From: an uncultured Candidatus Saccharibacteria bacterium
GTDB lineage: Bacteria > Patescibacteriota > Minisyncoccia > RBG-13-40-8-A
NCBI GenBank assembly: GCA_965231075.1
Contig: OZ246412.1
Coordinates: 170,019-234,018, forward strand
Direction of reading: 5' to 3'
DNA length: 64,000 nucleotides
In this document: positions 41,516 to 64,000 of the stretch, piece after piece
Position numbering within the stretch: the stretch's first letter is position 1
Layout: every line of letters begins with the position of its first letter
Made by a program: the position numbers and the translations under genes
The notes under the pieces: generated by a model
Told to the model about the DNA's origin: nothing
Database searches by the model: none
What the model saw: the letters and a program-made list of their open reading frames with translations, nothing else

Positions 41516-42739
41516 TTATTGTAAATATTTTTGTGGATCTAGGTGTGCACCAATTGGCACTGTACCATACCATGTTTTTTGTATTTGAACTGACTCGGAC
41601 GTGTAAACCCCAAAATGCACGTGTGCCCCGGTCGAATATCCCGTGCTCCCCTCATATCCAATAATATCGCCTCTTTTAACCTCGTCTCCGGCCTTAAAGC
41701 TGCCATATCCGGACATGTGGCCATATAAAGTGGTTAGTTTGTTGTCATGTTCTACCATTATCCATTTGCCGTAAGCATACTTGCCACAGTTCCCTATCGC
41801 CAAAATTTTTCCATCACGAGCCGACTTGATTGGCGTTCCATACTTGGTAGATATATCTATGCCATTATGGAACCCGCTTTTATACATTCTCTTGCTAAAG
41901 GCGGTATAACCATATCCTTGAGTTAAAACCCCTTCCATGGGCCAACTAAGGGCCCCAGGACGTGCTTCTACAGAGTTTGGATCAATGGTGGCCTGTATTT
42001 TGTCTTCTAGGTCGAAAATCTGTTGCTCTACCTCTTGTTGTTTTCGAAGGGTGTCATTTAGTAGTGTTTGATATTGCTTTTCTTGTCCTTTGGTTTGAGT
42101 CAAAAGATAATTCTTTTCTTGTTTCTCGCTGTCAATGATTGACTTTTGGTTAGAAAGTTGATTTCTTAATGATGCTAATTGATTTTTTTGAATCTCGGCA
42201 CTAGTTTTTTGTGTTTCCATCTCTCTTTTAATATTTTGAAGGTTGGTGATATTATTCTGGATGCTTTTTTGGATTGATTCCATGTAATGTATTTGGTTTA
42301 CAAAATCAGAAAGATTGTCCTGAGTTAAAACAATTTCCATTAACGATTCCTTATCGTATTCGGCCATGACCTGCAGCAAATCAGAAATTTCTTTTCTTTT
42401 CTTATCAATTTCATCTTGTTTAAGGTCAATGTCTAATGCTAAGGATTCAATTCTTAATGATGTTGCAGAAATTTTACTAGTGGTTACCGAAATATCCCCT
42501 TGAAGCGCTTTAATTCTACTGGCAATAATTGCTAACTGATTATTAAGCGTGTTTTTTTGCGACTGCGTACTTGTTAATTCTTTTTGATATTCGGCTGCTT
42601 GTGCTTCAAGTTGTTTAATTTCTGCCTCTTTTTGATTGATTTGGGCCTGTAAATCGTCAACAAGGCTAGCCGAAGATGGGCTTGGTAATAACCAGCAACC
42701 AAGAAATAAGATACAAATTATAAGTATTGTTTTTCTCAT
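41516..42739 (-). CDS. M23-family metallopeptidase with a long N-terminal coiled coil (EnvC/NlpD-like murein hydrolase or activator)
   Basis: Signal peptide, a ~250-aa heptad-rich coiled coil, and a C-terminal LytM domain (HNGIDIS...HVHFGVY). Confidence 0.8.
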   Translation of the reverse strand: MRKTILIICILFLGCWLLPSPSSASLVDDLQAQINQKEAEIKQLEAQAAEYQKELTSTQSQKNTLNNQLAIIASRIKALQGDISVTTSKISATSLRIESLALDIDLKQDEIDKKRKEISDLLQVMAEYDKESLMEIVLTQDNLSDFVNQIHYMESIQKSIQNNITNLQNIKREMETQKTSAEIQKNQLASLRNQLSNQKSIIDSEKQEKNYLLTQTKGQEKQYQTLLNDTLRKQQEVEQQIFDLEDKIQATIDPNSVEARPGALSWPMEGVLTQGYGYTAFSKRMYKSGFHNGIDISTKYGTPIKSARDGKILAIGNCGKYAYGKWIMVEHDNKLTTLYGHMSGYGSFKAGDEVKRGDIIGYEGSTGYSTGAHVHFGVYTSESVQIQKTWYGTVPIGAHLDPQKYLQ

Positions 42740-44217
42740 TTAAGTAATTCGATTGCCTTTTGAATACGTTTTAATGTCTCGGACTTCCCTAGGATTTCAG
42801 CGATTTCAAATGGACCTGGCGATTTTTCTTTTCCGCTTAATGCAGCACGCAACGGCCACAACAGTTGTCCGCGATCTATTTTCCCGTCAGAATTTATAAA
42901 TTTTTCTGCTTCCGGCAAAAGGATTTGTTTTAACTTTTCGGCTTCAAAATCATCATCTTTAACGTCGCACAATATTGTATATGCTTTATTCAACGAATCT
43001 AGTGTTTTTTGCTTAGGTGCGTCTTTCCCTCCGGGCTTTTGGCCCTGTAGGGCTGGAGGCCATGTTAGCATGTTTGAATTATACTCTGATTCCTCGAAAA
43101 AGAAAGCACTCGACTCCCCTATGTCAGATAGCTTGGTCATTCTTTCTTGTTCGAGTTTAATTATTTTTTCAATCGTTTTTTTATCTAAATTAGAATCCTT
43201 CGGTAAATACGGTAAACATAATTCAGTTAATTCTTTTATGGGCATTTGTTTGATGTATTGGCCATTAATCCAATCCAATTTATCGGTGTTGAATATTGCC
43301 GGATTTCTGTGAACCTTATCCCAATCAAACATTTCAATTAATTCTTTCAAACTTAAAATTTCTTTTTCTCCATCTTTGACACTAAGAATTATAAGTCCAA
43401 TAAAATTAATCAATGCTTCGGGTAAATATCCTTTTTCAATAAAATCCTCTACTGCCACATCTCCTTTCCTTTTACTAAGCTTTCCGCCGTCTTTACTAAG
43501 CATTAGCGAAGGATGAACAAAGACTGGTGGCTCCCAGTTAAAATATTTATACAATAAAATATGTTTTGGCGCAGAAGGAAGCCACTCCTCTCCCCTAATC
43601 ACGTGAGAAATTTCCATTAAATGATCGTCAACGGTGCTAGCGAAATGATAGGTTGGAAATCCGTCTGATTTAATTAAAACCTGGTCATCGATTAAATCGG
43701 ATTTAAATTCAATTTCACCGTGAAGTAAATCTTTAAATTTTATCGTCTCCCCTTCCGGAACCATCATTCTAATGGTGTATGGCGTATTGTTCTTTAAATT
43801 TTCATCAATTATTTGTTGGTCTAAATAGCGACAATGTTTGTCATACATTGGTGCTTGTTTTTTGGCGATCTGTTCTTCGCGCATTTCACCTAATCTTTTT
43901 TCGGTACAAAAACAATAATATGCTTTTTTCTCTTTGAGTAATTGATCGGCATATTTTTTATAGATATCTAATCTTTGAGATTGGAAAAACGGACCCTCGT
44001 CAAATTTGATGCCAAACAAATTGAGTGTTTTGAGTAAAGATTCAATTGCTCCCTCAACAAACCTTTCTTGATCTGTATCTTCGATGCGTAAAATAAAAAC
44101 ACCCTTTTCTTTTCGAGCAAAAAGGTAATTTAAAAGCACCATTCGCAAGCTGCCAATATGCAAAAAGCCCGTCGGCGATGGCGCAAACCGTACCCTAATT
44201 TTATTCTTCTTGGGCAT
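42736..44217 (-). CDS. gltX: Glutamate--tRNA ligase (start taken at MPKKNK; the track ORF extends to 44247)
   Basis: RFAPSPTGFLHIGSLR (the HIGH region) and KLSKRKG (KMSKS). Confidence 0.9.
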   Translation of the reverse strand: MPKKNKIRVRFAPSPTGFLHIGSLRMVLLNYLFARKEKGVFILRIEDTDQERFVEGAIESLLKTLNLFGIKFDEGPFFQSQRLDIYKKYADQLLKEKKAYYCFCTEKRLGEMREEQIAKKQAPMYDKHCRYLDQQIIDENLKNNTPYTIRMMVPEGETIKFKDLLHGEIEFKSDLIDDQVLIKSDGFPTYHFASTVDDHLMEISHVIRGEEWLPSAPKHILLYKYFNWEPPVFVHPSLMLSKDGGKLSKRKGDVAVEDFIEKGYLPEALINFIGLIILSVKDGEKEILSLKELIEMFDWDKVHRNPAIFNTDKLDWINGQYIKQMPIKELTELCLPYLPKDSNLDKKTIEKIIKLEQERMTKLSDIGESSAFFFEESEYNSNMLTWPPALQGQKPGGKDAPKQKTLDSLNKAYTILCDVKDDDFEAEKLKQILLPEAEKFINSDGKIDRGQLLWPLRAALSGKEKSPGPFEIAEILGKSETLKRIQKAIELLK

Positions 44218-44253
44218 ATTCACATTATAGCAAAATAAAAAGGTCAAGGGAAT

Positions 44254-44308: not shown

Positions 44309-45385
44309 TTATTTGGCGAATTTTAGGATTTCGTCACGGATTAGTTCGGGGGTTTGGGGATTGTAAAATTGTTTAGCCTTTTGGGACATTTCAGATAATT
44401 TTTGAGGATTAGATAACAAATTAGAGATTTGTTCCAACAACATATTTGGCGTTAGGTTTTCTTGTTCTAAAATAATTGCTCCACTGACTGCGCTAAACTC
44501 ATAAGCATTCTCTCGTTGATGATTTTGTGCTGAATTTGGCAACGGGATCAGAATTGATGGCTTCCCCAGTGCAGCGATTTCAAAAATTCCTCCTGCCCCT
44601 GCGCGATTCACGATTAAATCAGCTAAAGCATAGGCATGTTTCTCTTGTTCTGTGTTTAAAAACGGATATAAATGATATTCTGGCGATTGAATTGCTTCTT
44701 TTTCTAATGTTTTGTAATTATTTGTGCCGCAGGCATGAATTATTTCTGCCACCTCAATTAATTTTGGTAAATTATTAACCACTGTTTCATTTATTTTCTG
44801 TGCCCCTTGTGATCCACCAAGAATTAAAACGATTGGTTTGTTTGAAGAAATTTTAAACACTGCCTTTCCAGTATTTTTATCGCCAGTTAACAAGTCTTTT
44901 CTAATGGGATTGCCGATAACAATAATTTTTTCCTGTTCTTTGGGCTTAAAATACTTTTTACTTGTCTCAAAAGATAAAATAATTTTTTTGGCGAATTTAG
45001 CTGATTTTTTAGTTACTAGCCCGGGTATAGCATCTGAGTCGTGGATGATAACGGGAATACGATATAAACGCGCAGCAATCAATACAGGACAACTTCCGTA
45101 TCCACCCTTAGAAAACACTACGTCAGGAATCCATATAAACAAATTAAAAAGTGATTGAATAATTCCAATAAAAGATTTAAATATTTCTATAATTATCATG
45201 GGACTAAAATATCTATGTAATTTTCCGGCCATGATAAATTTTGCTTTGATGTTGCCCAAGTTTTCTTTTGCAAAGCCGTCTGGCCCGAGATATCTAGCCT
45301 CACAATCAGCGGTAAGTGCTTCCTTGATTGCGATTATGGGAAAAACATGCCCCCCCGTTCCGCCTCCCGTAAATAAAATTCTCAT
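44309..45385 (-). CDS. murG: UDP-GlcNAc:undecaprenyl-PP-MurNAc-pentapeptide GlcNAc transferase
   Basis: MRILFTGGGTGGHVFP N-terminus and the GT28 C-terminal domain. Confidence 0.9.
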   Translation of the reverse strand: MRILFTGGGTGGHVFPIIAIKEALTADCEARYLGPDGFAKENLGNIKAKFIMAGKLHRYFSPMIIIEIFKSFIGIIQSLFNLFIWIPDVVFSKGGYGSCPVLIAARLYRIPVIIHDSDAIPGLVTKKSAKFAKKIILSFETSKKYFKPKEQEKIIVIGNPIRKDLLTGDKNTGKAVFKISSNKPIVLILGGSQGAQKINETVVNNLPKLIEVAEIIHACGTNNYKTLEKEAIQSPEYHLYPFLNTEQEKHAYALADLIVNRAGAGGIFEIAALGKPSILIPLPNSAQNHQRENAYEFSAVSGAIILEQENLTPNMLLEQISNLLSNPQKLSEMSQKAKQFYNPQTPELIRDEILKFAK

Positions 45386-45421
45386 AAATTTTTAGGTTAA
45401 TTAGAAATTAGAATAATTAGA

Positions 45422-46513
45422 TTAATTTTGATGCTTAGATATGTTAACTAATATTCCCGCTCCGACCATGGTGATGATCAGTGCTGAACTACCATAGCTT
45501 ACAAATGGCAAAGGGATTCCCGTTAAAGGAATAATCCCAGAAATGGCACTGATGTTTATCAATGTTTGAAAGCCAATCCAACTAGCGATCCCGCAGGCTA
45601 ACAATTTGCCAAATCCATCATTAACTTTGTGACCGATCTTTAATCCCTTAAAAACAAACATTAAAATTAAAATCAAGAAGATTACACAACCCACAAAACC
45701 GATTTCTTCGGCCATGATTGCAAAAACGGAATCGTTCATTGGCTCAGGAAGATAATTGTACTTTTGGATGCTGTGTCCTGGTCCCCTGCCAAACAATCCT
45801 CCAGACCCGATAGCTAGAAGTGCTTGATTAATTTGATAACTGATTCCCTGGGGATCGGTAGAAGGATTAAGAAAAGTCATGAGACGTTCCATGCGATGTG
45901 GAAAAAATTTAATCAAAGCGAATAGCCCAGCAAGATAAACCAGAATTACTATTACAATTTGTGGTATTTTTGCCCCGCCAAGGAAATACAACACAAATCC
46001 CACAATTACAATTAGTCCCAAAGTTCCGGCATCATTCTGTAGCGCAATCAATCCTCCAACTACGGCGGTAATTGCTAGAAATGGAACCAAAGTATTGGTT
46101 GTCCCGGACTGAACCTCTTTTTTGCTAAAAAATGTGGCCAGGTAAATTATTAAAGCTAATTTTAAAAATTCAGATGGCTGGAAATTAATTGGACCTAAAA
46201 TTAACCATCTTTGAGCTCCTCCGTGCTTCATGCCGAGTTGAGGTACAAACACAAGAACACAAAGAATTAGAGCCAAGAAAAAAATCAATAAAGACAATTT
46301 CTTGTAAATCTTATAATCTATTTTTTGAACAATAAAAAATAAAATTAACCCCCCGACCCCGCCATAAATTAATTGATGAACAAAATAGTGATATGGATTA
46401 TTAGTTTGTTCCTGAGAAACAACAAGCGACGCACTAAGAAGCATTCCCAATCCAATCAACAACAAAAATAAAACAACGATTATTAACCATTTGTCTGGTT
46501 TTTTTCCTCTCAT
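45422..46513 (-). CDS. ftsW: SEDS-family peptidoglycan glycosyltransferase FtsW/RodA
   Basis: 10 TM helices. SEDS conserved loops (PSEFLKLALIIYLA, GSGGLFGRGPG). Confidence 0.85.
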   Translation of the reverse strand: MRGKKPDKWLIIVVLFLLLIGLGMLLSASLVVSQEQTNNPYHYFVHQLIYGGVGGLILFFIVQKIDYKIYKKLSLLIFFLALILCVLVFVPQLGMKHGGAQRWLILGPINFQPSEFLKLALIIYLATFFSKKEVQSGTTNTLVPFLAITAVVGGLIALQNDAGTLGLIVIVGFVLYFLGGAKIPQIVIVILVYLAGLFALIKFFPHRMERLMTFLNPSTDPQGISYQINQALLAIGSGGLFGRGPGHSIQKYNYLPEPMNDSVFAIMAEEIGFVGCVIFLILILMFVFKGLKIGHKVNDGFGKLLACGIASWIGFQTLINISAISGIIPLTGIPLPFVSYGSSALIITMVGAGILVNISKHQN

Positions 46514-48087
46514 GATCTTTTTAAAATCTTTCCCAATCTTTTATTTGTATAATAACCATTTTCTACGGCAATTTCCCCATTGACCAATACGTATTCGATA
46601 CCCTTGGGATATTGATACGGGTTTTGAAAAGTCGACTTATCAATTATAGAAGCAGGATCGATAATTACTAGATCGGCCCAATAATCTTCTTTAATCAATC
46701 CACGATCTTTAAGCCCAAGCTTGGTAGCCGGACCATGAGTTATTTTGTAAATTGCCTCTTCCCAACTTACTAAGTGTTCTTGTTCAACGTATTTTCCCAA
46801 GAATCTCGGAAAGGTTCCGAAGCACCTAGGATGTACCAGATCATTTTTTTTATGATAATAATCAAGATTATAACCAACTCCATCAGAGGCGATAAATCCC
46901 AAAGAATCAGAAATACCTAACCTTATATTTTCTTCATTTAGAGTATCAACAAAAACTGTGATTCTTGCTTCGGAGATTAAAAGCATGTTTATAATTGCTT
47001 CTTCAATGCTTACGTTTTCGGCTCGGGCAATTTCGGCTATATTTTTACCAATAAACGATTTACTAATTGGCGAAACGGCCACAGTAATTTTGTCGTATTC
47101 GTAGGATCTTTTTTCTTGCATTTCTCTAATAATTTTTTCTCTAATCGAAGGATCTTTCAATCTTTTTAAAAGCTGTGTTTTCCCTCCTTCAGCAGCCCAA
47201 TCTGGAAGAAGAATATATAGCACAGATCCGGTTATGGTATAAGGATAAATATCAAAATTAATATTGGTTTTATTAGATTTTTTAATCATCTCTAATGCTT
47301 TTTTCATGTTTGGCCAATGATTTGTTCCCATTGCCTTAAGATGAGATATTTCCGTGTTTACACCGGTTTTTTTTGCTACCTCAATCGTCTCTTCGATTGC
47401 AGGAATTAATTCTTCGGCTTCACCTCTAACATGTGTGGTATAAAGACCATTAAAGCTTTTAACTACTTTGGCTAACTCGATTATTTCTTTGGTTGTAGCA
47501 ATTTTGGCATGACTATAAGCTAATCCCGTAGAGAGTCCAAATGCGCCTTGTTTCATTGCAGTTTTCAACATATCAACCATTATTTTTAATTCTTTCGGTT
47601 TTAATTCTCTAAACTCGTCTCTTAAAAGTCCCCTTCTTAAGGTTGAATGGCCGACTAGGCTTGCAAAGTTTACGCCAATTTTTAATTTTTCTAAAGAAGT
47701 TAAAAATTCCTTATAAGTTAACCAATTTAAATTTATTTCGTTAGTATTGGACCACTTTTGAATAGCCTTTAACCCCTCCTGAGAAACCAGCGGAGCCAAA
47801 GAAGAACCACAATTTCCCCCTAGAATTGTGGTTATGCCTTGGCGTAATAGACTTTCTTGACTAGGGATTGTGAATAAAGTTAAATAAGTATCAGAATGAT
47901 TGTTTAGGTCTATAAAGCCGGGAGTTAGATACATATTTTCAGCATGAATAACTCTTTTGCCTTTTTTGGCATCGATATTTCTTTTGATTCTGTCGATTCG
48001 ACCATTGTAAATTCCTACATCGGCCTTGTATTTGGCGTTTTTGCTTCCGTCGACAATGATTGCGTCTTTAATCAAAATATCATACAT
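46510..48087 (-). CDS. N-acyl-D-amino-acid deacylase (D-aminoacylase)-family amidohydrolase, 525 aa, located where murD normally sits
   Basis: N-terminal beta-sandwich (IKDAIIVDGSKNAKYKADVGIYNGRIDRI) followed by the HAENMYLTPGFIDLNNHSD metal site and a TIM-barrel amidohydrolase core. It does not look like MurD. Confidence 0.7.
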   Translation of the reverse strand: MYDILIKDAIIVDGSKNAKYKADVGIYNGRIDRIKRNIDAKKGKRVIHAENMYLTPGFIDLNNHSDTYLTLFTIPSQESLLRQGITTILGGNCGSSLAPLVSQEGLKAIQKWSNTNEINLNWLTYKEFLTSLEKLKIGVNFASLVGHSTLRRGLLRDEFRELKPKELKIMVDMLKTAMKQGAFGLSTGLAYSHAKIATTKEIIELAKVVKSFNGLYTTHVRGEAEELIPAIEETIEVAKKTGVNTEISHLKAMGTNHWPNMKKALEMIKKSNKTNINFDIYPYTITGSVLYILLPDWAAEGGKTQLLKRLKDPSIREKIIREMQEKRSYEYDKITVAVSPISKSFIGKNIAEIARAENVSIEEAIINMLLISEARITVFVDTLNEENIRLGISDSLGFIASDGVGYNLDYYHKKNDLVHPRCFGTFPRFLGKYVEQEHLVSWEEAIYKITHGPATKLGLKDRGLIKEDYWADLVIIDPASIIDKSTFQNPYQYPKGIEYVLVNGEIAVENGYYTNKRLGKILKRS

Positions 48088-48137
48088 ATGATTTACAAAT
48101 TCAAATTTAAAATTTTGAATTTCAAATTTTGAATTCG

Positions 48138-49217
48138 TTAAAATAAGTTTGAATCAATAAAAAACAAAATAAGTCCAATAACTGTAGTTACTCCAGCAAT
48201 AATCCAAAATCTCATTGTAACCTTAGTCTCTGGCCACCCCTTGGCTTCAAAGTGGTGATGAATTGGTGCTGATAAGAATATTTTTTTGTGACGGATTTTC
48301 TTAGATAATACTTGAATAATTACAGACAAAGATTCGATCAATAAAATAAATCCAATTAATGGTAAAAAAAACAAAGTATTTGTGAGCATAGCAATTACTC
48401 CTAGGGTTATGCCCAGGGCCATAACTCCCGTATCTCCCATAAAAAATCGTGCCGGATGAATATTAAACCAAAGAAACGCTAATAGCGCCCCCACAACCGC
48501 TCCACATAATGTAGCCAGCTCTATTTTGCCTTGGCTGAAGCAAATTACTCCATAAGCAGAAAACGCTGCCAACAACACGCCACCCGATAATCCATCTAGT
48601 CCGTCGGTTTCATTAGCGGAAAACGCCGATGCTACGATTGCAAAAATAAAAATTGGAATATACCACAAACCAATGTTAAAATCTCCAATGAATGGCACAT
48701 GAAGCAAGTCCCAATCAAGCTTAAAATAAAACCAATAAGCAGCAATGCAAGCAATGGCAGTATAGATGATAATTCTTTCTCGCATTCTCAATCCTTTGCC
48801 GGTTTTGCCCATTCTGTTTATGCCCATGAAATCATCAATTAACCCAATTAAAGCGGCAAACAACATGACACCTAGCGGTAATAAGGTTTGTTTTCTGGTT
48901 AAAAAATTATAGTCAGAAAAGATTGTGTCTGGTCCGAATATTTTGGTTAAAATTAGAACCAACACAGCAATAACAATAACCGTTACCCAAATTAAAATTC
49001 CTCCCATGGTTGGAGTTCCTTCTTTCTTTTTGTGTAGAGCTGTAAAAACCGGAGTGGTTCCTTCGTCCCTGATCCCCTTGCCCATTTTATATTTATACAA
49101 AAAATGGGTTAAAATCGGTGTCGAAAATAATGCCACAACAAAAGAAATCGCAGCAATGGTTAAAATTTTTATTACAGGAAATATATTTATTGCCATATCC
49201 ATGCGGTTTGTGTCCAA
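48138..49217 (-). CDS. mraY: Phospho-N-acetylmuramoyl-pentapeptide transferase
   Basis: 10 TM helices with MraY/WecA family loops (GLIDDFMGI, FFMGDTGVMALG, HHHFE). Confidence 0.85.
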   Translation of the reverse strand: MDTNRMDMAINIFPVIKILTIAAISFVVALFSTPILTHFLYKYKMGKGIRDEGTTPVFTALHKKKEGTPTMGGILIWVTVIVIAVLVLILTKIFGPDTIFSDYNFLTRKQTLLPLGVMLFAALIGLIDDFMGINRMGKTGKGLRMRERIIIYTAIACIAAYWFYFKLDWDLLHVPFIGDFNIGLWYIPIFIFAIVASAFSANETDGLDGLSGGVLLAAFSAYGVICFSQGKIELATLCGAVVGALLAFLWFNIHPARFFMGDTGVMALGITLGVIAMLTNTLFFLPLIGFILLIESLSVIIQVLSKKIRHKKIFLSAPIHHHFEAKGWPETKVTMRFWIIAGVTTVIGLILFFIDSNLF

Positions 49218-50137
49218 TCAATGAGTTTTTCGGTATCAATTTCTCGTTGAGTTGAACCCAAAACTACTGTAATTAAATAATTATCATTATAAATTTTTGA
49301 AATTGTCATTAAACATCCTCCTGCTTCATTGGTATAACCAGTTTTACCACCGATTAATTGAGGAATTTTTCCTAAAAGTTTGTTAGTGCTGGTGATTTTA
49401 TGAATTACACTTTTATCAATAGAGTAAATGGTTGTTTCGGGGGTCTTTAAAATCTCCGCAAGCAAAGGAGATTTAAATGCGTATTCGGCCAAGATAGCAA
49501 TTTCTGCAACAGTTGACTGATTATACGAATCAAGTCCAACTGGCTCTACAAAACTCGTGTTTTTCAGTCCCAACTCTTTTGCTTTGTCATTCATTTTTAA
49601 AATAAACTCATCATAGGTCATTTGTGGATTATCTTTTGCCAAAGACATTGCGGCATCGTTTGACGATTCGACAAGCATAATATATAACAGATCTTTTACT
49701 TTTAGTTTTTCATCGTTAATCAGTCCTCCGTTTGTGCCATCGGTTTCAATTGCGTCTTTCGATATAATAATAACGGTTTCCGGATCGTAATTTTCAATTG
49801 CGACGATTGCGGTCATTAGTTTCGTCAGACTAGCGATTGGTAAAACCTGATCGATGTTTTTTTGTAACAGAGTATTATCTTTCCGGTCGTTTCGGAAATT
49901 TAAAACTATTGCTGATTTTGCAAAAATTTCTGGTTCTTCTATGGACCAGTTTCTGATCGGGAAAAATTTATTATCAATATCATTTGAATTTGGTAGTTTA
50001 GATATTGTTTTGTCTCCCTGAGATTGATTGATGTTTGCTTGAATTGGTTTTTCATTATCATTAATTAATAACAAAACCCAGGCAATGCCAATTAATAACA
50101 AAACTATCAATATTTGCAGGAAATATTTCTTTACCAT
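49187..50137 (-). CDS. dacA: D-alanyl-D-alanine carboxypeptidase (S11, PBP5/6-like)
   Basis: N-terminal TM, SxxK motif (PIASLTKLMT), SxN (ESSND) and KTG (GKTGYT). Confidence 0.8.
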   Translation of the reverse strand: MVKKYFLQILIVLLLIGIAWVLLLINDNEKPIQANINQSQGDKTISKLPNSNDIDNKFFPIRNWSIEEPEIFAKSAIVLNFRNDRKDNTLLQKNIDQVLPIASLTKLMTAIVAIENYDPETVIIISKDAIETDGTNGGLINDEKLKVKDLLYIMLVESSNDAAMSLAKDNPQMTYDEFILKMNDKAKELGLKNTSFVEPVGLDSYNQSTVAEIAILAEYAFKSPLLAEILKTPETTIYSIDKSVIHKITSTNKLLGKIPQLIGGKTGYTNEAGGCLMTISKIYNDNYLITVVLGSTQREIDTEKLIDWTQTAWIWQ

Positions 50138-50155: not shown

Positions 50156-50188
50156 AAAAAAATAATCCACAGTAATCAACTGTGGATT
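50156..50188 (-). terminator. Rho-independent terminator after aspS (minus strand)
   Basis: AATCCACAG-TAATCAA-CTGTGGATT hairpin. On the minus strand it is followed by TTTTTTT. Confidence 0.75.
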
Positions 50189-50203
50189 ATTTAACGTCTA
50201 AGA

Positions 50204-54920: not shown

Positions 54921-55730
54921 TCATTTAATGATTATTACGTTTTCTAATTTAGAAAAATCAATCATTGGAGAGATTATAACCTTTTGGAAAATCTGATTAT
55001 CTGACGGATCAATACTTTTAATTGTACCAATAATAATGCCCCTGGAATATAAATTGTCCATGCCGGAAGTAATCACTTTTTCATTTAATTCGACTTCTTC
55101 TGTGTTGGGAATAAAATCCATAAACAATCCTCCTTTCTCACTTCTCTTTACCAGCCCCTCGGCCCGGCTATTTTCGAGTATTGCTGAAATGGTAGAATCT
55201 TTATGAGAAACAAGCATTACCTTAGAAAAACCCTCTGAAACCTCAAAAATTCTGCCTATAAGCGCTTTTTCTGGCGAAACAACCACCATCCCCTCTCCAA
55301 CCTTGTTATTGCTTCCCTTGTCGATTAAAATCCAATCCCGAGTACCTTGAATGTCTTTGCCGACAATCGTGGCTACTTCTTCAATTGAATATTCCGTTTT
55401 ATCGATTTCGAGTGTTTGTCTTAAAAAATCATTTTCTCTTCTGACTTCTTTGAGTTGAGCGATTTCGGTCTCCAGTGTTAAGTTTTTTTGTCGGAGTTCA
55501 ATGTTTTCTTTGTTTAAATTGCCAATAGAAATTAACATTTGGAAAAAATTAGCAATTCCCCTACCAATATTTGAAAATAATTTTGTGATTGGTGAAAATA
55601 TTTTATAAACAAAATTCCCAAGTCCTTTATTGAGACCGGGGATTAAGTTTATGATAACCAAAACGATGATTAGAATGAAAAGTATTAAAAATATCTTTTT
55701 CATTTTATTTGGGAACCTCGCCGTAATCAC
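54921..55730 (-). CDS. mreC: Rod shape-determining protein MreC
   Basis: N-terminal TM, a coiled coil (NKENIELRQKNLTLETEIAQLKE) and a C-terminal beta domain. It is downstream of mreB. Confidence 0.8.
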   Translation of the reverse strand: MITARFPNKMKKIFLILFILIIVLVIINLIPGLNKGLGNFVYKIFSPITKLFSNIGRGIANFFQMLISIGNLNKENIELRQKNLTLETEIAQLKEVRRENDFLRQTLEIDKTEYSIEEVATIVGKDIQGTRDWILIDKGSNNKVGEGMVVVSPEKALIGRIFEVSEGFSKVMLVSHKDSTISAILENSRAEGLVKRSEKGGLFMDFIPNTEEVELNEKVITSGMDNLYSRGIIIGTIKSIDPSDNQIFQKVIISPMIDFSKLENVIIIK

Positions 55731-56757
55731 TTGCCACTAAGACATCTCTTAATTTATCTAATTCTTCCAAGATGATGCCGGCACCGCGTGCAACTGCAGT
55801 TAATGGATCATCAATAATTTTAACCGGCATTTTTGTTTCTTCGTGAATAAGCTTGTCTAATCCCCGAAGCAAGCTTCCTCCACCGGCCAAAACAATGCCT
55901 CGATTCATTAAATCAGAAATTAATTCTGGCGGAGTTTGTTCAATGGTTTCTTTGATAGCAGTTACAATTGCTTCGTTTGATGCATACAGGGCCTCACGAA
56001 TCTGATCGCTATTAACAACGACTTCTTTAGGTAGGCCAGTAGATAAGTCGCGTCCTCTTACCGGAGCCTCTAGAATTTCATCTAACTCGTAAGCTGAACC
56101 GATGGTAATTTTAAGGTCTTCGGCAGTTTTTTCTCCCAAAACAATCTTTAGTTCGTCGTGAGCATAATTAATAATGTCTTGATTTAGTTTGTCGCCGGCA
56201 ATTTTTAATGTTTGGCTAGCAACAATTCCGCCTAAAGAAATGACAGCAATGTCAGTGGTGCCGCCGCCAATATCAACAATCATATTTCCCACTGCCTCCT
56301 GGACCGGTAATCTTGCACCAATCGCCGCTGCCATCGCCTCTTCAACCAAGTATACCTCTCTCGCTCCGGCACTAAGCGCAGCATCTTTAACTGCCTTTTT
56401 TTCAACTTCGGTGATTCCTGATGGAATACCAATAATAATTCTTGGTCGAGGAAATAAGCTAAAGCTATCTTTATGAATTTTGTGAATAAAATAACGAAGC
56501 ATTTGCTCGGTTACTTCAAAATCAGAAATCACTCCCTCGCGCAATGGTCGGGTTGCAGAAATGTGTGCGGGGGTTCTGCCAACCATTCTCTTGGCCTCAA
56601 CACCAATAGCTAAAACTTGTCCGGTTTTTTGATTCACAGCAACAACTGATGGTTCATTAATTACAATCCCCTTGCCCTTAACATAAACAAGGGTTGTAGC
56701 AGTACCCAAATCAATCCCTACGTCCTTGGAAAATTTTCCCAGTATTTTATTAAACAT
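55705..56757 (-). CDS. mreB: Rod shape-determining protein MreB (actin homologue)
   Basis: GIDLGTATTLVYVKGKGIVINEPSVVAV, DIGGGTTDIAVISLGGIV. Confidence 0.95.
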   Translation of the reverse strand: MFNKILGKFSKDVGIDLGTATTLVYVKGKGIVINEPSVVAVNQKTGQVLAIGVEAKRMVGRTPAHISATRPLREGVISDFEVTEQMLRYFIHKIHKDSFSLFPRPRIIIGIPSGITEVEKKAVKDAALSAGAREVYLVEEAMAAAIGARLPVQEAVGNMIVDIGGGTTDIAVISLGGIVASQTLKIAGDKLNQDIINYAHDELKIVLGEKTAEDLKITIGSAYELDEILEAPVRGRDLSTGLPKEVVVNSDQIREALYASNEAIVTAIKETIEQTPPELISDLMNRGIVLAGGGSLLRGLDKLIHEETKMPVKIIDDPLTAVARGAGIILEELDKLRDVLVASDYGEVPK

Positions 56758-63015: not shown

Positions 63016-64000
63016 TTACTTTTTGGACATAATACTACGTTTGTATATTTCAAGATTTTCCAATACTGCACCACAACCTTTGGCAACGCAAGTTAATGGA
63101 TCTTCGGTTACATAACATGGCACGCCAGTTGTTTTAGAAATAAGATCATCTAAGTTTGAAAGCAATGCTCCACCACCCGAAATGAACATTCCCCTATCCA
63201 TAACGTCAGCGGCTAGTTCTGGTGGCGTAACTTGTAAAACGCTTTTAATTGCACGAATCATCTCTTTTAGTTCTCCAGAAATGGCCTCAACAACTTCTTT
63301 GTTGGTGATTTCCACAATTTTTGGCAAGCCCTCAATTAAATCTCTCCCCTTTATCTTAATTGTTCCTCTTTCAGAATTAGGAATGGCGCTTCCAATTTGA
63401 ATCTTAATTTCTTCGGCGGTTCTATCACCAATAGCAAGGTTGTGCTTCCTTTTAATATAATCAGTGATTGCTCTATCTAGCTTGTCTCCAGCCACTCTGA
63501 CCGAAGACCAGGCAACAATTCCGCCTAAAGAAATGATTGCCACATCAGTCGTTCCTCCACCAATATCAATAATCATGTTCCCTACGGGAGAATTTATGGG
63601 TATGCCTGCACCAATAGCTGCTAGAACCGGTTGTTTGGCGATATAAGCAGATTTTGCTCCGGATTGGATAGCTGCTTCAATTACTGCCCTTTTTTCTGTA
63701 GAAGTGATCCCCGCCGGAACGGAAACTAAAACTTCGGGTCTAAATATTCTAAATTTGCCACTAGCCTTATTGATGAAATATGAAAGCATTGCCTGAGTGA
63801 TTCGATAATCAGCAATAACCCCATCCTTTAGTGGTTTAGAAGCAATAATTGAGTCAGGGGTTCTGCCAATCATTTCTCGGGCTTCGTTGCCAACTGCCAA
63901 AACTCGATTATCATCAATTGAAATAGCTACGACTGATGGTTCATTAATAACTACCCCCTTTCCAGGAATGTAAACCAATGTATTTGCTGTACCTAAATCA
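63016..64000 (-). CDS. mreB: Second MreB/Mbl-like actin homologue. The 5-prime end runs off the window.
   Basis: VVINEPSVVAI..., DIGGGTTDVAIISLGGIV, GGGALLSNLDDLIS. The reading frame is open to the window edge (DLGTANTLVY continues upstream). Confidence 0.85.
   Translation of the reverse strand, partial: DLGTANTLVYIPGKGVVINEPSVVAISIDDNRVLAVGNEAREMIGRTPDSIIASKPLKDGVIADYRITQAMLSYFINKASGKFRIFRPEVLVSVPAGITSTEKRAVIEAAIQSGAKSAYIAKQPVLAAIGAGIPINSPVGNMIIDIGGGTTDVAIISLGGIVAWSSVRVAGDKLDRAITDYIKRKHNLAIGDRTAEEIKIQIGSAIPNSERGTIKIKGRDLIEGLPKIVEITNKEVVEAISGELKEMIRAIKSVLQVTPPELAADVMDRGMFISGGGALLSNLDDLISKTTGVPCYVTEDPLTCVAKGCGAVLENLEIYKRSIMSKK

Follow-up and report, generated by a model that had tools for sequence, protein, structure and literature searches.

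The closest described relatives of the protein considered here are D-aminoacylases and related deacylases. The D-aminoacylase of Alcaligenes faecalis DA1 (1M7J) and the D-acylase of Klebsiella (9G5M/9GV8) are composed of a beta-sandwich, a (beta/alpha)8 barrel and a mobile alpha/beta insert (PMC12149444). Bb3285 (BbDam) of Bordetella bronchiseptica (3GIP/3GIQ), an N-acyl-D-glutamate deacylase, recognizes N-acyl-D-Glu with a free alpha-carboxylate through a positively charged cavity, and PpOngB (9KB1/9KB3), a beta-mononuclear GlcNAc1A deacetylase, is a precedent for a D-aminoacylase offshoot that gained a new substrate via cavity remodeling (PMC12017989). We analyzed a 64-kb stretch of DNA (the window) from contig OZ246412.1 of an uncultured Candidatus Saccharibacteria bacterium (GTDB lineage Patescibacteriota, Minisyncoccia). 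It encodes a 525-aa member of this family, for which we use the working name AMH, between mraY and ftsW in a block of peptidoglycan genes. To our knowledge, the Bb3285 gene has no link to cell-wall synthesis genes. AMH is conserved across Parcubacteria as part of the cell-wall cluster, where it had gone unremarked, and it differs in gene context and in active-site signature from every characterized member of the family (DA1, Klebsiella D-acylase, Bb3285 and OngB).

AMH is a D-aminoacylase-family protein (amidohydrolase superfamily, subtype V, with a Cys/His/His beta-metal site). Full-length phmmer matches were obtained with 1M7J (Table 1), 3GIP (E=2.7e-57) and 9KB1 (6e-58), and identity to the DA1 and Klebsiella enzymes is ~28-30%. 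Pfam Amidohydro_3 scored 77, above its cut-off of 29.7, and database entries label AMH homologs D-aminoacylase. AMH was below the cut-off of every NCBIfam model, that of the D-aminoacylase family included (NF006560, 168 bits vs 340). An AF2 model (predicted local distance difference test, pLDDT, 82.8; predicted template modeling score, pTM, 0.87) has the fold of the family, with a beta-sandwich of N- and C-terminal parts, a (beta/alpha)8 barrel and an alpha/beta insertion after beta7. In Foldseek, this model matched all solved D-acylases (9gv8, 1rjq, 9kb1, 3gip and 1m7j) with template modeling (TM) scores of 0.80-0.82 (0.82 for Bb3285) and E values of ~1e-41, whereas the next fold class, comprising allantoinase, hydantoinase and dihydroorotase, reached only ~0.5. 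The original prediction of an N-acyl-D-amino-acid deacylase-like amidohydrolase therefore holds. The dihydroorotase-type alternative that it had raised is ruled out by this low score and by partial matches, dihydroorotase models covering only the N-terminal 65 residues with at most 65 bits (cut-offs 279-728). A Mur ligase of the MurD type was also rejected, because only amidohydrolase domains were found, with no Mur_ligase_M/Mur_ligase_C or GxxGKT features. No transmembrane segment was predicted in AMH, so it is soluble and probably cytoplasmic, as judged from the sequence.

Residue roles were assigned from PMC12149444 and PMC12017989. Like the DA1 and Klebsiella enzymes, the window AMH has the beta-metal ligands (C93, H219 and H249), the general base (D402 in an SDG motif, equivalent to Asp366 of 1M7J after beta8), the alpha-carboxylate site (Y281 of the YPY motif, S288 through its backbone, K251, and R421 of the HPR motif) and the acyl-site Tyr (Y191). 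In this comparison with D-aminoacylases, made on the model and the alignment, only the first His of the HxH motif failed to match: the motif reads N62-N63-H64, N62 corresponds to His67 of 1M7J, and the motifs align without gaps. AMH also differs from these two enzymes in that the loop from the Asp to the HPR motif is longer, and its gene lies in the cluster of division and cell-wall (dcw) genes, whereas theirs stand alone.

Homologs of AMH at 51-93% identity were all ~525 aa long and came from Patescibacteria, Portnoybacteria and Azambacteria, that is, the Parcubacteria group. Synteny was followed by a scan of species-representative genomes and then by phmmer, the matches listed leaving out the window's closest relatives. 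The same gene order occurred in many independent contigs from metagenomes and metagenome-assembled genomes, at AMH identities from 93% down to ~33%, and the longer order S11-MraY-AMH-FtsW-MurG-GltX-M23 was present in Portnoybacteria- and Azambacteria-type contigs. The mraY-amidohydrolase-ftsW synteny is thus conserved in related genomes, and since the order recurs across genomes, the position of AMH is not due to chance or to a random insertion.

In many relatives murD is part of this arrangement. AMH was found directly upstream of murD in at least ~25 Moraniibacteria-type loci in the species-representative scan and in at least ~35 Parcubacteria loci overall. The order mraY-AMH-murD-ftsW was seen in L026, L028 and L094-L097 (L-numbers denote the homologous loci compared). 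It was also seen, with extra genes, in L093, a Parcubacteria assembly with the order MraY-x-AMH-NlpC/P60-MurD-PALP-ATP-grasp-FtsW-MurG-MurC-ABC-MurB. AMH is followed by MurD, FtsW and MurG in L026, L028, L033 and L043 (the last with extra genes between), and MraY precedes wherever the contig reaches upstream. In Moraniibacteria, AMH and murD are followed by a TrxB-like gene, murA and mreB. AMH adjoins mraY in at least 17 loci and remains with it when murD leaves. These data show that AMH was ancestrally located between mraY and murD in the Parcubacteria peptidoglycan-precursor cluster, of which it is a stable member.

The most informative locus is L094, whose AMH is 59% identical to the window AMH and belongs to the same broader clade. 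Its flanks are those of the window (ScpA-ScpB-S11-MraY upstream, FtsW-MurG-GltX-M23-XerC downstream), but murD lies between AMH and ftsW, as it does in L095-L097. The ATGA junction of AMH and ftsW in the window is the murD site of L094-L097, and it contains no murD remnant. Because L094 has identical flanks with murD in place, the window order derives from murD leaving the slot between AMH and ftsW; several branches of the AMH tree, separate from one another, have the murD-less order. The original prediction, which had the amidohydrolase occupying the place of murD, was mistaken on this point, since AMH and murD are adjacent in most related lineages, L094 included. AMH as a replacement for MurD was accordingly rejected, given also its lack of Mur ligase features.

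Outside the Candidate Phyla Radiation (CPR) the context is different. We searched for peptidoglycan genes near sampled non-CPR homologs (30-38% identity; archaea, Synergistales, Acidobacteria, Planctomycetes and others) and found none; one of these homologs (L041) adjoins an M23 peptidase. All CPR-clade members with enough flank, down to 33% identity, lie among peptidoglycan-precursor genes. It would therefore be very improbable that AMH is a generic catabolic deacylase of D-amino acids or N-acyl-amino acids which hitch-hikes in the operon and has no role in peptidoglycan, as its database label and the stand-alone, peptidoglycan-free setting of the outgroup enzymes might suggest. Such a passenger is also difficult to reconcile with the active-site changes fixed in this clade (see below) and with the retention and high conservation of AMH in extremely reduced genomes even after loss of catalytic residues.

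Two minor observations concern the AMH gene itself and its 5' neighbor. In L027 and L043, AMH is split into two open reading frames (ORFs), representing either a frameshifted pseudogene or an assembly error. In five Moraniibacteria loci, a conserved Glu/Lys-rich low-complexity protein of ~345-390 aa (cluster c23) is encoded immediately 5' of AMH, between GAPDH and AMH (e.g. in L017 and L024); it had no Pfam or NCBIfam match.

The neighbors of AMH point to the step at which D-Glu is installed. In L009, L011 and L029, the gene following AMH encodes an 814-859-aa MurL-MurD2 fusion, and the ligase halves of these fusions carry the MurD2 signature (Asp182 to Glu, Lys348 to Arg, Ala414 to Pro, and Lys319 replaced), whereas unfused MurDs adjoining AMH retain the canonical Asp and Lys. 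The signature residues of MurD2, an L-Glu ligase, have been described (PMC8788868). In L014 the gene for MurI (glutamate racemase) lies directly upstream of AMH, and in L016 it lies directly downstream of murD. In L101 and L103, which both have the window's flanks, MurI rather than AMH lies between mraY and murD; L102 begins at murI, directly before murD, and in L104, L106 and L107 nothing separates mraY and murD. All kinds of D-Glu-installing gene, namely MurD, MurI and MurL-MurD2, are thus represented among the neighbors of AMH. Because it coexists with both MurI and MurL, it is not a mere substitute for either, and the same co-occurrence weakens the idea of AMH as the sole D-Glu source in place of MurI. 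MurI and MurL/MurD2 (an L-Glu ligase with an ATP-dependent epimerase) resemble AMH in being encoded beside murD, where they provide D-Glu, but their folds and chemistries are unrelated to it. Nor is AMH a MurL homolog: the MurL family NF041275 was not among the 25 best NCBIfam families listed for AMH, and MurL forms a domain of its own, fused to MurD2, in L009, L011 and L029. MurL was described as having no known conserved domains (PMC8788868).

Some of these neighbors are unusual in their own right. In nearly all AMH-adjacent Parcubacteria MurDs (e.g. that of L017), Ala or Thr stands where E. coli MurD has Lys319, with Asp182 and Lys348 canonical; with K319T, the E. coli enzyme is reported to accept L-Glu (PMC8788868). 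In a Pacebacteria-like lineage (L022, L043 and L093), an NlpC/P60 gene lies between AMH and murD; its products have no obvious signal peptide, and that of L022 contains a BON domain. Between murD and ftsW, L093 encodes a LysW-like zinc ribbon, a PALP (pyridoxal phosphate-dependent) enzyme and an ATP-grasp_3 protein, while L043 has two ORFs of similar size, with no family assigned, at the PALP/ATP-grasp_3 position. The gene set of these three loci may represent an unusual stem-peptide chemistry or a recycling module.

The CPR AMH clade was monophyletic in the AMH tree, and AMH is a Parcubacteria-only offshoot of the D-acylases with a remodeled active site. Clade-specific positions were identified by comparing 41 outgroup D-acylases with three core CPR groups (the window clade, the Moraniibacteria type and the Pacebacteria type). 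Fixed in all three are His193 (Pro in 41/41 outgroups), Asn387 (Asp in 90%), Phe423 (Tyr in 93%), Arg152, Tyr406 and an inserted IQKW loop (109-112 in the window AMH). The substitutions P193H, D387N and Y423F and the IQKW insertion set the whole clade apart from the DA1 and Klebsiella enzymes. G287, S288 and Y291 had also appeared clade-specific, but this was put down to an alignment shift of one residue past the YPY motif, and they were dropped.

In addition, many members of the AMH clade, unlike the DA1 and Klebsiella enzymes, are without catalytic residues. The first His of HxH (His62) is present in 40/41 outgroups (98%) vs 0-26% of the CPR groups, with 26% in the window clade. Asp402 is invariant in the outgroups and falls to 9% in the Moraniibacteria type, vs 85-86% in the two other core groups; in many CPR relatives outside the window sub-clade, with the same gene context, it is replaced by Asn, Ser or Ala. 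The full catalytic set was present in 29 of the 154 clade sequences. A further 81 have lost only His62, which is the state of the window AMH, and 32 have lost both His62 and Asp402 and kept the beta-metal ligands; in nine these ligands are lost too (C93S, H219Y), and just three have kept His62 and lost Asp402. The losses are therefore nested: His62, then Asp402, then C93/H219. Asp402 was lost at least five separate times in the tree. A Moraniibacteria sub-clade (L017-L025 and L029) carries S93 and Y219, with two of the three beta-metal ligands gone.

Taken at the level of sequence and gene context, AMH may be a cytoplasmic accessory factor of the D-Glu step which was recruited beside mraY and murD and which, in the window, probably still acts as an N-acyl-D-Glu-type hydrolase. 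We favor this reading tentatively, at a little under an even chance. AMH would recognize an N-acylated D-amino acid with a free alpha-carboxylate, via a clamp of Tyr281, Ser288, Lys251 and Arg421 and the acyl-site Tyr191. Its likeliest ligand would be the N-acyl-D-Glu moiety found in the cytoplasm within a peptidoglycan intermediate or a turnover peptide, e.g. L-Ala-D-Glu, N-acyl-D-Glu being the best candidate because of the genomic association with D-Glu-installing genes. In the window sub-clade, AMH would probably be a mononuclear (beta-site) zinc hydrolase using C93/H219/H249 and Asp402, and the released D-Glu and L-Ala might be re-used by MurD and MurC, amounting to a D-Glu economy at the MurD step. 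Peptides of the L-Ala-gamma-D-Glu-diamino-acid type are processed in the cytoplasm by YkfC (NlpC/P60), the YcjG/YkfB epimerase, MpaA, LdcA and Mpl. None of these murein-recycling enzymes is known to be an amidohydrolase-superfamily D-acylase, and we know of no direct L-Ala-D-Glu hydrolase of the D-aminoacylase family in recycling. A functional analogy is proposed with Bb3285, which shares family and fold with AMH; characterized relatives of this type (Bb3285/BbDam) hydrolyze N-acyl-D-Glu (cited in PMC12149444 and PMC12017989). The suggestion in the original prediction that AMH processes D-amino-acid-containing muropeptides is supported in part: the link to peptidoglycan is strongly implied by the conserved position, and the data do not require salvage of host-derived fragments.

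Several observations weigh against the hydrolase reading. Few evolutionary events that are independent of one another underlie the linkage to murD. MurI and MurL-MurD2 co-occur with AMH, and in their presence salvaged free D-Glu should be unnecessary. A counterpart of Arg295, the residue specifying D-Glu in Bb3285, could not be mapped onto the window AMH, as loop lengths differ, and the acidic Asp296 near the side-chain site in the window clade would disfavor a D-Glu side chain. Caution is also needed because N62 occupies the position equivalent to H68 of PpOngB, which is essential there. PpOngB acts on a sugar acid in chitin catabolism and keeps both HxH His residues, the first of which is lost in the CPR clade; in that enzyme H68A, H70A and D368A each abolish activity (PMC12017989), so the eroded AMHs are very unlikely to be canonical hydrolases. 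They nevertheless remain under strong purifying selection (omega 0.04-0.08), and thus the conserved function of the family cannot be canonical hydrolysis. The eroded proteins are even more conserved than the neighboring essential MurD (84% vs 55% identity between L017 and L018), and L094 (N62/N402) and L095-L097 (full catalytic set) occur in the same gene context.

Since AMH is conserved after loss of catalytic residues, the family probably also has a non-catalytic role, which might consist of ligand binding or of a partnership with MurD, MraY or FtsW. It is possible, though somewhat unlikely, that this is the essential role throughout, and that the AMH family is a Parcubacteria-wide component of the precursor machinery, a module derived from D-acylases with the D-Glu or D-carboxylate end of a precursor as its ligand and MurD, MraY or FtsW as its partner. 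In that case, hydrolysis would be an ancestral activity now disappearing from one lineage after another. Proteins of this kind are known elsewhere. CRMP/DPYSL proteins have the amidohydrolase fold without the catalytic residues and are conserved for partner binding; CRMPs were among the distant Foldseek matches of the AMH model. An inactive dihydroorotase-like subunit of Pseudomonas, PyrC', reportedly structures aspartate transcarbamoylase. Both resemble the eroded AMH lineages under purifying selection, but they belong to a different branch of the superfamily, and the window AMH retains most catalytic residues.

The window AMH, like its eroded relatives, might itself be a pseudoenzyme, but we consider this unlikely. 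Loss of metal ligands or base under purifying selection is seen in the relatives, whereas the window AMH has lost only His62. In the window sub-clade (62 sequences, at least 64% identity), the metal, base, carboxylate- and substrate-site residues are found in 60-62 of the 62 sequences (C93/H219/H249 in 62/62, D402 in 60/62), while only 134 of 525 columns are invariant. That these sites are kept while most columns vary argues for a working metal site. The His62-to-Asn change could be taken the other way, given that the equivalent H68A kills PpOngB (PMC12017989), but Asn could still hydrogen-bond Asp402 as His does. A pseudoenzyme would also agree with the nested, repeated losses, the low omega and slow evolution relative to MurD, the intact and eroded forms in one gene context (L094-L097), the changes fixed next to the active site across the clade (P193H, D387N, Y423F and the IQKW loop) and the translational coupling of AMH to ftsW. 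These features are set against three quarters of variable columns around (near-)invariant metal ligands, Asp402 and substrate-site residues in the window sub-clade.

The carboxylate clamp would suit any D-residue with a free carboxylate (PMC12149444), and the ligand might therefore be a C-terminal D-Ala, either of D-Ala-D-Ala or of the UDP-MurNAc-pentapeptide end, in which case AMH would work for MraY in the cytoplasm, as a VanX/VanY-like factor in trimming or hand-off. The adjacency to mraY in at least 17 loci, kept when murD leaves, and the S11 DD-carboxypeptidase in the same block (with Ddl as well in L026 and L028) are in keeping with this idea. However, Moraniibacteria have AMH together with murD, murA and at times murI, apart from mraY; the basic Arg152 and His193, should they face the pocket, would speak for a ligand with some anionic feature and not just a methyl side chain; and destruction of D-Ala-D-Ala would have no obvious benefit in a minimal genome. 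We regard a D-Ala ligand as improbable.

With respect to stem-peptide synthesis, Pfam scans and phmmer with E. coli and CPR references found no Mur ligase, Ddl, MurI, MurL, MurA, FtsQ or FtsZ in the 64-kb window or in ~7 kb past its right end, which agrees with the absence of Mur ligases, FtsQ and FtsZ around the cluster noted originally. In a more radical variant of the proposed role, AMH-containing, murD-less lineages such as the window's would bypass MurD via salvaged D-Glu-containing peptides. Carried further, AMH would stand in for MurD in an organism with no de novo stem peptides, which would process host muropeptides and ligate a preformed peptide in the manner of Mpl. Besides the missing ligases, it could be noted here that several independent lineages with no murD in the slot all retain AMH, and that the NlpC/P60 protein encoded between AMH and murD in L022, L043 and L093 presumably resembles YkfC-type murein-peptide recycling. 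A MurD search with the closest available query placed none on window-sub-clade contigs among the best 120 matches listed, which is weak evidence for such a bypass, and a MurF search matched no protein to an AMH-bearing contig of this sub-clade. In a metagenome scan with the L094 MurD, related murD genes occurred only in dcw-type contexts.

The wider comparison makes such a stand-in for MurD quite improbable. AMH and MurD are neighbors in most lineages, close relatives with identical flanks included, and an ATP-dependent ligation is beyond an amidohydrolase. Where Azambacteria-type genomes have the window's order, M23-MraZ-RsmH-FtsL-FtsI-MurF comes next in the block (L035, L090 and L091; the L090 contig is 941 kb), so at least one Mur ligase is encoded ~10 kb away, namely murF downstream in L090/L091. 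In L093, the cluster that contains AMH also contains murC, murD and murB. MraY, MurG, FtsW, PBP2 and the DD-carboxypeptidase, which need UDP-MurNAc-pentapeptide, are all intact, and this implies lipid II synthesis. The earlier suggestion that the organism may not build stem peptides thus finds no support in the gene content of these relatives, although it might still apply to the window's own lineage. In the Azambacteria-type loci L090 and L091, murF directly follows ftsI with no murE between, unlike the canonical dcw order; the bypass could draw on this arrangement.

In the open-access literature, we found no earlier paper that mentions AMH as part of CPR dcw clusters, and none that reports MurL from Patescibacteria. 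The dcw cluster is among the most conserved bacterial gene arrangements and encodes antibiotic targets; a further gene conserved between mraY and murD, in a very large and uncultivated radiation, would mean that a pathway held to be fully known has a lineage-specific extra component. The supply of D-Glu and wall building blocks in Parcubacteria, which are reduced symbionts, is unclear, and the repeated clustering of AMH with MurD, MurI and MurL-MurD2 makes their D-Glu handling directly testable. The AMH family also offers a natural series of stepwise loss of catalytic residues under strong constraint, useful for studying the origins of pseudoenzymes. Furthermore, the Parcubacteria MurL-MurD2 fusions extend an "alternative" peptidoglycan pathway which, according to a 2021 review, is limited to relatively few genera; MurD2/MurL are listed there for Xanthomonadales, a few Alphaproteobacteria and rare actinomycetes only (PMC8788868).

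The features of the window and of the compared loci are listed in Table 1; gene identities are from Pfam, NCBIfam and PDB sequence searches, which bore out the coordinates and identities of the predicted five-gene minus-strand cluster with its overlapping or adjacent boundaries. The predicted 4-nt overlap of AMH and ftsW was read directly as ATGA. The S11 and mraY genes also overlap, whereas 50 nt separate mraY and AMH and 36 nt separate ftsW and murG. The terminator-like hairpin preceding the S11 gene suggests that the S11-mraY-AMH-ftsW-murG unit begins there. Upstream of the block are aspS, greA and a PBP2-mreDCB module.

Table 1. Coordinates of features in the window (unprefixed positions) and in homologous loci (positions prefixed by locus number)
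Feature	Position	Strand	Remarks
S11 D-Ala-D-Ala carboxypeptidase	49187-50137	minus	PF00768, 1e-44; N-terminal membrane anchor; first gene of block
mraY (phospho-MurNAc-pentapeptide transferase)	48138-49217	minus	TIGR00445, 235 bits, cutoff 192
AMH, 525-aa amidohydrolase	46510-48087	minus	Pfam Amidohydro_3; PDB D-aminoacylase 1M7J, E=2.5e-68
ATGA junction AMH/ftsW	46510-46513	minus	AMH stop and ftsW ATG share 4 nt
ftsW (SEDS glycosyltransferase)	45422-46513	minus	TIGR02614, 367 bits, cutoff 337.5
murG	44309-45385	minus	TIGR01133, 263 bits, cutoff 250
gltX	42736-44247	minus	downstream continuation of block, kept in nearly all relatives
M23 peptidase	41516-42739	minus	after gltX; downstream continuation kept in nearly all relatives
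Terminator-like hairpin	50160-50192	minus	14 bp stem and T-run, between aspS and S11 gene; consensus match only
MreB paralogs	55705-56757, 63016-63978	minus
NiFeSe-hydrogenase large-subunit-like ORF, 418 aa	22150-23406	plus	PF00374, 1.5e-31
MurL-MurD2 fusion proteins, 814-859 aa, Parcubacteria	L009:11583-14027, L011:6680-9193, L029:11676-14255, L110:4517-6967		MurD2 residues read in L009, L011 and L029
murI	L014:9111-9893, L016:3161-4006, L101:9187-9999, L102:368-1180, L103:9187-9999
AMH as two ORFs	L027:7415-9007, L043:2200-3773
c23 protein	L017:8958-9989, L024:3380-4423
murD adjacent to AMH	L017:11786-13183
NlpC/P60 gene	L022:11714-12613, L043:3843-4529, L093:8544-9518
Zinc ribbon, PALP and ATP-grasp_3 genes	L093:11665-14614
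murF directly after ftsI	L090:8347-11287, L091:8355-11287

The window has a GC content of ~35% and a gene content typical of Patescibacteria. A promoter scan of the window gave matches no better than in shuffled sequence, and Rfam and tRNA scans of it gave no match. The window encodes two MreB paralogs, one within the mreBCD-PBP2 module directly upstream of the cluster and the second beside two GT4 glycosyltransferases. It also contains an ORF with a NiFeSe-hydrogenase large-subunit-like domain, in a genome otherwise of minimal metabolism.

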